DNA from: Escherichia coli
Lineage (GTDB): Bacteria > Pseudomonadota > Gammaproteobacteria > Enterobacterales > Enterobacteriaceae
NCBI RefSeq assembly: GCF_003334255.1
Contig: NZ_QOWU01000062.1
Direction: 5' to 3' (one strand)
DNA: 27,246 nt
A program made the position numbers. This document shows positions 15,001 to 18,000 of this stretch, one piece after another. Numbering within the stretch: the stretch's first letter is position 1; every line of letters begins with the position of its first letter.

Positions 15001-18000
15001 ATTCGCACATCCGTTCCCGGTTACTGACGGTCATCACTGTCTCCGGGCGGGAACCGTCCTGAAAAACATGTCCGGTGCGTGGAGAACTGTATGAAACATA
15101 ACCACCGTGCACCGCAATGACCGGACGACCTGACGCCGGAAGCCCCACACGACACCCACTGGCAATCCGGGTCATCAGCAGGTTCAGTTCAGCCAGTAAT
15201 TCAGGGCGGGTTAAGACCGCCGGAACCGGAGAATATTTCACTGAGGAAGACATACTTTCACCTCCATATCTCTCAGCCCGCCAGGTGCGTCACTTCCCCG
15301 CAGAGAACCGGAAACCTGGCTATATGAAAAAAGGGAAAAGGGTGCCGGACGAACAGTTGTCGGGAATAAAATCCCGGTAACTGTCTGTACGTTTTCAGAC
15401 CGGTAAGTTTGGCGACCCTGGTCAGAAGGTACGGATAGCATCTTTATATTCATAACAAATTGAATTAAAAAGGAAAAAGATAAATACAAAGCATCAACAA
15501 CTGCCGTCCGGCATTGATAACAACCATGATGAGGATGGCAACATGGCAAAATATTATGAAAACTGGAAATTGTTCTCGCTTAACCTGAATCACTGACGAA
15601 TTCCTCCGTTTTCCAGCAACCCGTCAAACGCCGGTTTCCACTCAGGAAAGAGTTCACAGGTCAAGCTGTGCATCGTGACAAGCGCAGAATCACTGCGACG
15701 TGTGGATTCTTTTTCGAGACGATGAACGGGCTGACCAGCCGCATGTCCCTGCTTGTAAATATTCAGGTCGTAAATCTGTGTGGAAAGAAGGGAAACGGCA
15801 CCTTCAGGTAACTGTCTGCTGTAACGACCGGTCTGAATAATTCCGGCCAGCTCATCCAGCGTCTTCCTGGCCAGCGCGGTATAGTCCATGCAGTTAACCA
15901 GCGTGCGTACTTTAGGCAGGGGTATCCCAAGTTCACGGTAGGGCAGCAGGTTCTCCATGACGTTGACAGTACCGCGAATAAATTCACGAACATCGGGAAG
16001 AACCGGATTGACCATCCCGACAACCGACTCAGTCGCCGACAGCACTATCATCTCCAGCATGACGGAGCGCGCCCCCTGAGAATCAACGACAATGACATCG
16101 TAGTTATTCAGGAAAAGTGGATGTTGCAGAACATTCCGGAGGCGAAGACGCCCGTCCGGGGCATGAAGCATCGCTGTTTTTAACTGTTCATGAGGATCAT
16201 TGGAGACAATCAGATCAAGGCCATCGATAGCCGTGCGGGAAATGATATTATCGGGATGGCTGAGGTCAGCCGTACGCATAAGAAGCTCAAAAAGACCGGC
16301 TGGAGCTTCATATGTCAGCGGAAAGATATTACTGGCTGTGGGTTGAGCATGATCTCCGTCAATCAGCAGGGTACGTATACCTGCATCGGCCAGAAAACCA
16401 GCAAGATTTGCGGATTGTGTTGATTTACCTTCACCACCTTTTGTTGAAACAACGGGAAGTATTTTCATATCTGCGCCCCCATCGACTGTTTTTTTGCGAT
16501 CGGATGCACATGAAAGACTTCAACGACAACTTGACATACCCGTAACTATATGAATTTTATGACAATGGGATTGAAAATCCCCGTGTCCTTGGTTCGATTC
16601 CGAGTCCGGCACCACTAATTCTTAAGAACCCGCCCACAAGGCGGGTTTTTGCTTTTGGATCTGACAATAACCTTCACGAAAAAAATTAGCTTATAAAGTC
16701 TGGGGGAATTACTCTCGCCACGTTAACGAGAGTAATTTTATTGATATTAATCTCCTGATACTTTACCCCCGTCCAAACTCCAGCCGCTGCACATTCACCA
16801 TCCCAGGCTTCTCAGCAGCACTGACATCAATTTGTGTCACCCGCAGCGCATATTTTTCATCCAGTGCGTTTAACCATTTCAGCAGGTCATTAAACACCAC
16901 AGGTTCTATCCAGACCTGAATATTCTCCCCACGATCGGCTATCCGCCTGATGACCACCGAGTGCGCGGAAGCACTGTCACTGATGACCCGCGATACCTGC
17001 GCAGGCGTTGTTGTGGCAGATTTTCGCGCTGCAATAATATCCGGCGCGGCGTTCTTCAGTCGGGTGTTCATCGCCACCAGCTGCTGCAATATTGTCTCCT
17101 GTTGCTCAATCCGTTCGCTCAACGGCTGCCAGATGAGGACGTAATATCCGACGCTAAACAGGAACACCACCGCTGCCAGTAACATGCCCTTTTCACGCGG
17201 AGAACGCCCCGCCAGGTGTTGTGCCAGCCAGTGTTCGCCACGGCTTAACTGGCGTTCACGCCATTGCTGAAAATAGTGAATAAATTTATCGCGTAACATG
17301 TTATTTCCTCCGCAACGTTACGCCGCCGGAAACCGCATCACCCTCTTTCTGTAACGCGTCCTGTTGCACAACATAATCGGTTGCCAGTGCACTACGCAGT
17401 TTGTCGAAACTGGCAAAGTTCGCGGCCCGTAGCTGGAGGTGAAGTATCTGGCGTTTTTGATCAAAGGTAAAACCACGCATTTCGATGTCGGAAAGTGACG
17501 CTGATTTCAGGGTGCTGGCTATCGCTGACAACTCGGCGAGCAGCCGGGTATCGTCGGCCTGTGGGCGATATTTTTTCAGCGCCATCGTCACCTGAGAGCG
17601 TAAATTCACAATCCGCTTCTGCTCCGGGAACAACGTTAAGAACTGTTCCTCCGCCTGGGTGCGGCTTTGCGCCACCTGTTCGCTGACGCTCCATAACGTC
17701 ACGCCCCGCTCCACTGCCAGCGCAACCAGAATCAGCAATATCGGCAGAATCATCACCCGCCAGCGCGCCCACTGTTTTCGGTAGCTGACGCGAGGCTGCC
17801 ACGGCCCTGTCAGCAGGTTCCCTTCCGGTTCGCCATAAGTGGTAATGGCGGGCAGAGCTGTAACGGTCAGGCGTTCAGCGTCTGCGCCAGCCCATGCTGA
17901 TAGCTTTTCCGGTGCAATGCCGACTACGGTTAGCGAAAGCGGTAAATCCTGCTCATTGAGCTGGGCGCGGAACATGACCGGAGCCAGCGCCAGCCCGGCG

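Follow-up and report, generated by a model that had tools for sequence, protein, structure and literature searches.

We analyzed a 27,246-nt stretch of Escherichia coli DNA (contig NZ_QOWU01000062.1 of RefSeq assembly GCF_003334255.1; hereafter "the window") in which an ICE (integrative and conjugative element) meets the chromosome at a fragment of a tRNA-Phe gene. The junction is very probably the attR site of an approximately 92-kb ICE of the SPI-7/ICEEc2/PAPI-1 (pKLC102) family, integrated site-specifically in the tRNA-Phe gene pheV. Just inside the element lies an outward-pointing pair of promoter-like hexamers, for which a chance match is the likeliest explanation; transcription across the joined ends of the excised circle most likely runs from the integrase end into the partition gene parA. 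The border is an ordinary, textbook attR of a known ICE family, and an identical element is already present in public genomes. Its description fixes the right boundary of a conjugative island of about 92 kb at pheV together with the recombination site, which helps annotation and the design of attP/attB assays.

A tRNA-Phe fragment at the border of the element

The segment at 16567–16614 (plus strand) reads GGGATTGAAAATCCCCGTGTCCTTGGTTCGATTCCGAGTCCGGCACCA and corresponds to the 3' part of tRNA-Phe from position 28 through the terminal CCA (48 nt; positions 28–76 with one G missing, GGC replacing GGGC at 16606–16610, so that it is one base short of the canonical 49-nt segment). In megablast comparisons, homology to the ICE of E. 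coli 2015C-3121 extends from the first base of the window to exactly 16614, and homology to island-free chromosomes begins at exactly 16567 and continues into the gsp operon. The overlap between island and chromosome is thus precisely the 48-nt segment, far beyond chance. The fragment is identical to the pheV of EC2, an island-free strain in which the empty site has the order yqgA, pheV, terminator, yghD (gspM) to gspC; this order identifies the flank in the window as the pheV locus. The only pheV copy of EC2 is a 75-nt allele (locus L002, 2974–3048), compared with the canonical gene of 76 nt. Since the "intact" pheV of EC2 is this same allele, the fragment is the host lineage's own displaced 3' end, that is, the attR copy of the direct repeat. 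A 74-nt query from the allele matches 72 records exactly, and the one-base-deleted end has been listed as an "imperfect attR" of P4-type pheV islands (PMC11537424). The GGC allele would make the acceptor stem shorter. Because the attP site of the ICE brings in a canonical 3' part, integration should restore a normal tRNA-Phe at attL. ARAGORN calls no tRNA anywhere in the window, nor at the attR of the junction loci. No Rfam match passes the threshold, whether at the junction or in the P' arm, and in the window there is only a partial, sub-threshold tRNA match of 15 bits; both results fit a tRNA fragment. A preliminary description of this DNA had recognized a match of about 48 nt to the 3' part of tRNA-Phe at these positions, preceded by non-tRNA sequence, and the homology limits and the EC2 allele bear this out.

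The element occupies the first 16.6 kb of the window (1–16566), where all genes lie on the minus strand and include ssb, topoisomerase III, PFL_4669, STY4528, ParB, DnaB-PI and ParA. Four of the proteins exceed the curated cut-offs of NCBIfam models (cut-offs in parentheses): dnaB_SPI-7_type at 682 (655), ICE_PFGI_1_parB at 379 (144), STY4528_fam at 400 (130) and ICE_PFL4669 at 241 (111). The names given by the Prokaryotic Genome Annotation Pipeline (PGAP) to identical DNA agree with an assignment to the SPI-7/PFGI-1-type family. By both sources, then, the family-specific core genes of SPI-7/ICEEc2/PAPI-1 (pKLC102) elements are present. The match of 1–16614 to strain 2015C-3121 is reported as 100.0%; the ICE part (1–16566) shows zero differences where it was read, and the tRNA-derived end differs by a few bases. 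Directly upstream of the equivalent part in 2015C-3121 are conjugation genes (the TIGR037xx set, TraD and PilL).

The first gene inside the border is a parA/soj-type ATPase gene (15590–16468, minus strand), an open reading frame that is annotated in identical DNA as ParA family protein WP_032308565.1 and reads away from the att site. Its NCBIfam matches to ParA/MinD-type P-loop models fall below the equivalog cut-offs. Between parA and the att core lies a 98-nt ICE-specific arm (16469–16566), which is both the parA leader and the P arm of attP. The corresponding arms of 12 E. coli elements range from 52 to 100 nt and fall into six unrelated sequence types, and the same mosaic of six types is seen among 146 E. 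coli genomes that share the parA family. Elements with a 97%-identical parA (G6/7, KY177), for example, have a 52-nt spacer of wholly different sequence. The arm upstream of the core might be the decayed 5' half of a captured tRNA-Phe gene, an unproven idea; its ACCCGTA resembles the acceptor strand GCCCGGA. In the EC17CM2 group, where the arm begins with GCCCGTA and can pair with the acceptor 3' strand, the RefSeq/PGAP annotation places a "tRNA-Ser" across the attR junction, made up of the ICE arm and the tRNA-Phe fragment (locus L006, 1730–1807). ARAGORN finds no tRNA there and Rfam gives 17.7 bits, to tRNA-Sec, which lends no support to a real tRNA.

The integrase end in relatives and the site of strand exchange

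The complete genome of strain STEC2018-553 carries the same ICE at pheV: its ParA and Int proteins are identical, its last 1100 nt do not differ, and the pheV flank is shared. Some 92 kb to the left of the border, the order is yqgA (plus), pheV (plus, 76 nt), a tyrosine integrase gene, int (minus), a nickase/helicase gene (minus), UvrD (minus) and, at the opposite end, ParA (minus). The two 49-nt tRNA segments are identical, forming perfect direct repeats, and are separated by 92,076 bp. The border had earlier been taken for the integrase-distal end of an element inserted in tRNA-Phe, with the intact tRNA gene and the integrase beyond the start of the window; STEC2018-553 has exactly this arrangement, the window's own left end lying outside its limits. 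The repeat of the tRNA 3' part is thus seen as attR in the window and as its attL partner in relatives, and the family layout, in which int adjoins the intact tRNA gene and ParA/Soj lies opposite, is seen with ParA in the window and with int in relatives. Eight int ends have int next to tRNA-Phe: STEC2018-553, 2015C-3121, KY177 and five others. JNEC-KY177 has a 95%-related ICE of about 81 kb that extends from pheV to yghD.

Strain 2015C-3121 carries this ICE at pheU, and its ends are built in the same way. The presence of an identical ICE at pheU in one strain and at pheV in STEC2018-553 and the window is an indirect sign of mobility, as judged from sequence, and excision of the window's copy should still be possible. 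Behind the ICE of 2015C-3121 lies, in tandem, another element that is partly decayed; it begins with int-TraI-UvrD and has YadA-like, IS66 and sialic-acid genes (locus L001, 32567–48615).

Where in the repeat are the strands exchanged? Two versions of the tRNA-Phe 3' part occur among the ICE lineages, one with the E. coli T stem (CTTGG/CCGAG) and one with a compensated stem (GGTGG/CCGCC). In KY177, AR_0089 and S19-141, the ICE-type T stem is found in the intact attL tRNA gene and the native one in the attR fragment, and at the tandem junction of 2015C-3121 the ICE arm runs into the GGTGG version of the neighbouring element. At the other border of the segment, ICE-specific sequence starts immediately to the left of G28 in 12 of 12 junctions. 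Taken together, the T-arm hybrids and the start of ICE sequence at G28 confine strand exchange to the shared segment GGGATTGAAAATCCCCGTGTC (16567–16587), which comprises the anticodon stem-loop and the variable loop. The anticodon stem-loop is a classic target of tyrosine recombinases. The remaining 27 nt of the repeat are carried only to rebuild the tRNA. Hosts of the GGTGG/CCGCC lineages accordingly carry a hybrid pheV (loci L005, 10505–10580; L017, 325–400; L019, 227–302; L001, 32567–32614).

Sequence comparison with the relatives shows the following steps of integration. The attP site of the ICE contains two-thirds of a tRNA-Phe gene, from its 3' side, and the ICE tyrosine integrase exchanges strands inside the anticodon stem-loop segment at 16567–16587. 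The pheV gene at the far (left) end thereby becomes a hybrid of a native 5' part and an ICE-supplied 3' part, and the native 3' part, the terminator and the gsp operon come to lie at the ParA end.

Predicted transcription across the joined ends of the circle

The promoter-like pair at the ParA end (16531–16560, plus strand) can be read as TTGACA-18-TTTTAT, with the -35 hexamer at 16531–16536 and TTTTAT at 16555–16560, or as TTGACA-16-AATTTT. The -35 hexamer is perfect, faces outward and lies at a distance of 31 nt from the att core. We consider the pair most likely a chance match in an A+T-rich recombination arm, without a role in integrase expression. TTTTAT lacks the A at -10 position 2, so a consensus scan does not call the site. 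A sigma-70 weight matrix gives it 9.1–9.5 bits (slightly more for the AATTTT version), a score equalled by 18 sites in the window and reached by about 3% of its 150-nt segments; among dinucleotide shuffles of the 101-nt intergenic stretch, 20% attain it, and 13% do so for the EC17CM2 variant. The pair is confined to one of the six spacer types, type A. It is kept in the approximately 90%-identical EC17CM2 group; in NCTC9112, related at 99.6%, the -35 hexamer is TTGAAA and not TTGACA. Type B keeps TTGACG with no -10 at the aligned place, and the weight matrix finds no outward sigma-70 site in the ParA–att spacer of types C and E. The hexamers and their spacing are as first described, but the sequence does no better than chance as a promoter and is not conserved.

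It had also been proposed that this promoter may have a circularization-dependent role, as in ICEclc, where Pcirc drives the integrase gene after excision. A perfect outward -35 so close to the core speaks for such a proposal, and ICEclc, a distant relative of the SPI-7/ICEEc2/PAPI-1 family, does have such a promoter (PMC5812530). The geometry is wrong, however. In an ICEclc-type arrangement the 5' end of int faces the att site; in all eight int ends, int lies on the strand opposite the tRNA, and its stop codon faces att at 191–212 bp from the 3' end of the tRNA. The order on one strand of the circle would be UvrD, nickase, int, attP and parA. Because int is convergent, with its 3' end toward att, a rightward transcript from 16531–16560 would be antisense to int after circularization. 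Past the core and before int, such a transcript would first reach a hairpin of -21 kcal/mol followed by the U-rich tail UUUUCUCG, as predicted by folding of the P' arm. A U-rich tail follows the hairpin in the tRNA direction only, with none in the direction from int to att; a terminator scan does not call the P' arm hairpins, whose tails have 4 T in 8 positions after the longest stem, and the P' arm contains no small open reading frames of note. An ICEclc-type promoter at the ParA end would also be expected to stand above chance or to be conserved, and the pair does neither (shuffle p-value 0.13–0.20; one of six types; no scan call). A Pcirc-like function for this pair is thus extremely improbable.

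Circularization-coupled transcription as such probably does occur in the family, starting at the opposite end and with parA as its target. All eight int ends (seven of them distinct) carry an outward motif, TTGACA-N14-TGn-AA(G/T)(C/A)AT, one of them with an 18-nt spacer and AAAGAT (loci L023, 21380–21440; L011, 8679–8720; L005, 10300–10345; L001, 32800–32845; L017–L021). The motif shares the strand of int and either overlaps its stop codon or lies immediately beyond it; TGn is an extended -10 element, and the -10 hexamer, AAGCAT, AATCAT, AAGAAT or AAAGAT, follows a perfect TTGACA by 17 nt (18 in one). When the six distinct arms whose spacer has 17 nt are compared in pairs, identity reaches 100% in the -35, 82% in TGn (TG invariant) and 86% in the -10; the remaining spacer positions give 35% and the sequence upstream 36%. 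Conserved hexamers and TG amid divergent spacers point to a promoter under selection and directed outward. Within the circle, this conserved extended -10 promoter past the int stop codon would read across attP into parA (15590–16468), the transcript running about 320 nt through attP. At the level of sequence, and outside the window, these ICEs thus have a PAPI-1-type arrangement, in which a predicted outward promoter at the int end runs in the same direction as parA when read across attP. We conclude from the conservation, the geometry and the precedent of PAPI-1 soj that circularization-dependent transcription in the SPI-7/ICEEc2/PAPI-1 family most likely runs from the int end into parA and not from the ParA end into int.

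As to a parA promoter on the ParA side, spacer types A–E, including that of the window, have no parA-directed sigma-70 site above chance (shuffle p-value 0.4–0.94); a site in type F, with 11.4 bits and a shuffle p-value of 0.058, is borderline. The best candidate in the 98-nt arm, TTCAAT-19-TATAGT (7.7 bits), would use the anticodon loop as its -35 and was rejected, its score being within the null range. In the tandem of 2015C-3121, the first ICE has its parA permanently linked to the predicted int-end promoter of its neighbour.

Several points weigh against this account. The window does not reach the left end of the element, so the intact pheV and int are placed there on the strength of STEC2018-553 and other relatives, and the best match across the full junction is 92.7% in an E. 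coli collection that does not include the window's exact genome. Both promoters, at the ParA end and at the int end, are sequence predictions. The int-end promoter likewise escapes the consensus scan, because AAGCAT matches TATAAT in 3 of 6 positions; its single-sequence shuffle p-values range from 0.008 to 0.2, so the case rests on conservation. Finally, the ParA-end pair, read as TTGACA-16-AATTTT, combines a perfect -35 with two critical bases, the A at -11 and the T at -7, and could be a weak working promoter.

If that site were a real local promoter, it would produce in the integrated state an RNA of about 90 nt consisting of the tRNA-Phe 3' half and the pheV terminator, and once the element was circular it would be opposed head-on to the int-end promoter and so modulate parA. 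Its place in the top 3% of 150-nt window segments and its retention in the EC17CM2 group speak for this, but the shuffle p-values, the TTGAAA of NCTC9112, the missing -10 in type B and the lack of any outward site in types C and E speak against it, and there is no gene downstream in either the integrated or the circular form. We regard such a promoter as quite unlikely. It is tempting to hypothesize that a working promoter at 16531–16560, convergent with the int-end promoter across attP, would form a switch that sets ParA according to the integrated or free state; from the sequence, however, this elaboration appears less likely still. Somewhat better placed, although also unlikely, is the reading of TTGACA as part of a putative binding site in the P arm of attP, used by the integrase or by an accessory recombination protein, and not as a promoter. 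At this point of the alignment, types A, B and C all have xTGACx (TTGACA, TTGACG and CTGACA), while the -10 is not retained; an inverted repeat links the core-proximal arm to the variable-loop side of the tRNA, GACA(A/C)(T/G)GGGA ... TCCCCGTGTC; and the 12-mer YTGACAYRMCCG occurs at one place only in the window and the loci. This 12-mer was, however, defined post hoc from two sequences, an identity of 8 in 12 between two stretches of some 50–100 nt is expected by chance according to our estimate, and the motif is absent from types D, E and F. The 12-mer common to types A and C was accordingly rejected as a protein-binding motif. The preferred explanation of the pair at the ParA end thus remains a chance match.

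The chromosomal flank and comparison with known elements

To the right of the fragment is the native intrinsic terminator of pheV (16623–16651, plus strand), which is called by the terminator scan, has a folding energy of -19.5 kcal/mol (z = -3.8) and has the same sequence as that after the intact pheV in EC2. It is followed by yghD(gspM)-gspL-K-J-I-H-G-F-E-D-C, the type II secretion (beta) operon (16763–27095, minus strand), identified by near-identical annotated EC2 DNA (reported as 100.0%). The order of fragment, native terminator and gsp operon had been noted before and agrees with EC2. The last 77 nt of the window (27170–27246) are terminal sequence of IS1A and match exactly the ends of three annotated IS1A copies. 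This insertion lies in the 5' part of gspC and so probably disrupts the beginning of the operon; it appears to be shared by strain ECCHD184.

ICEEc2 was reportedly described in E. coli BEN374 by Roche et al. in 2010, in J Bacteriol 192:5026. Like it, the present element has the same family markers, tRNA-Phe targets, a type IV pilus and UvrD, nickase and integrase at one end. It differs in being the approximately 92-kb variant of 2015C-3121 and STEC2018-553, with different cargo such as iha, restriction-modification and toxin-antitoxin genes; the comparison covered these features. SPI-7 of Salmonella Typhi and the SPI-7 ICE family are said to have been treated by Seth-Smith et al. in 2012. The likeness to SPI-7 includes the dnaB_SPI-7_type, STY4528 and STY4534 models matched above cut-off, insertion in tRNA-Phe, a repeat of about 50 bp, and ParA and int at opposite ends. 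Unlike SPI-7, the element has no Vi or SopE cargo, its host is E. coli, and it is inserted in pheV and not in pheU. Both pheV and pheU have been named as hotspots of ICEEc2-family ICEs (PMC11537424; PMC13127887; PMC6761156).

The P4-type genomic islands at pheV (GI-pheV; PMC11537424) use the same tRNA gene, and the attR that adjoins yghD in them shows the one-base deletion as well, TTCGATTCCGAGTCCGG-CACCA. In contrast, they have a P4-like integrase that reads away from the tRNA and repeats of 19–23 bp at the T loop/acceptor end, whereas the repeat here is 48–49 bp with the crossover in the anticodon stem-loop. ICEclc belongs, distantly, to the same broad ICE group, and its outward promoter at the integrase-distal end acts on a gene across attP. 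This promoter, Pcirc, was reportedly the subject of work by Sentchilo et al. in 2003. It lies upstream of Pint and intB13 (PMC5812530). The 5' end of intB13 faces att and Pcirc drives it, whereas the int gene here turns its 3' end to att.

The closest parallel for the predicted direction of transcription is PAPI-1/pKLC102 of Pseudomonas aeruginosa, where soj/parA is also the first gene at one end and int lies at the other. According to the papers that cite Qiu et al. 2006, soj expression in PAPI-1 rises in the circular form, where soj is brought together with a promoter from the element's 3' end (PMC2654960, PMC2704930). PAPI-1 uses tRNA-Lys, unlike the present ICE, and the E. coli promoter is predicted from conservation; the int-end motif of the E. 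coli elements nevertheless has the same geometry. The conserved promoter at the int end is a concrete candidate for the control of parA in the enterobacterial members of the family.

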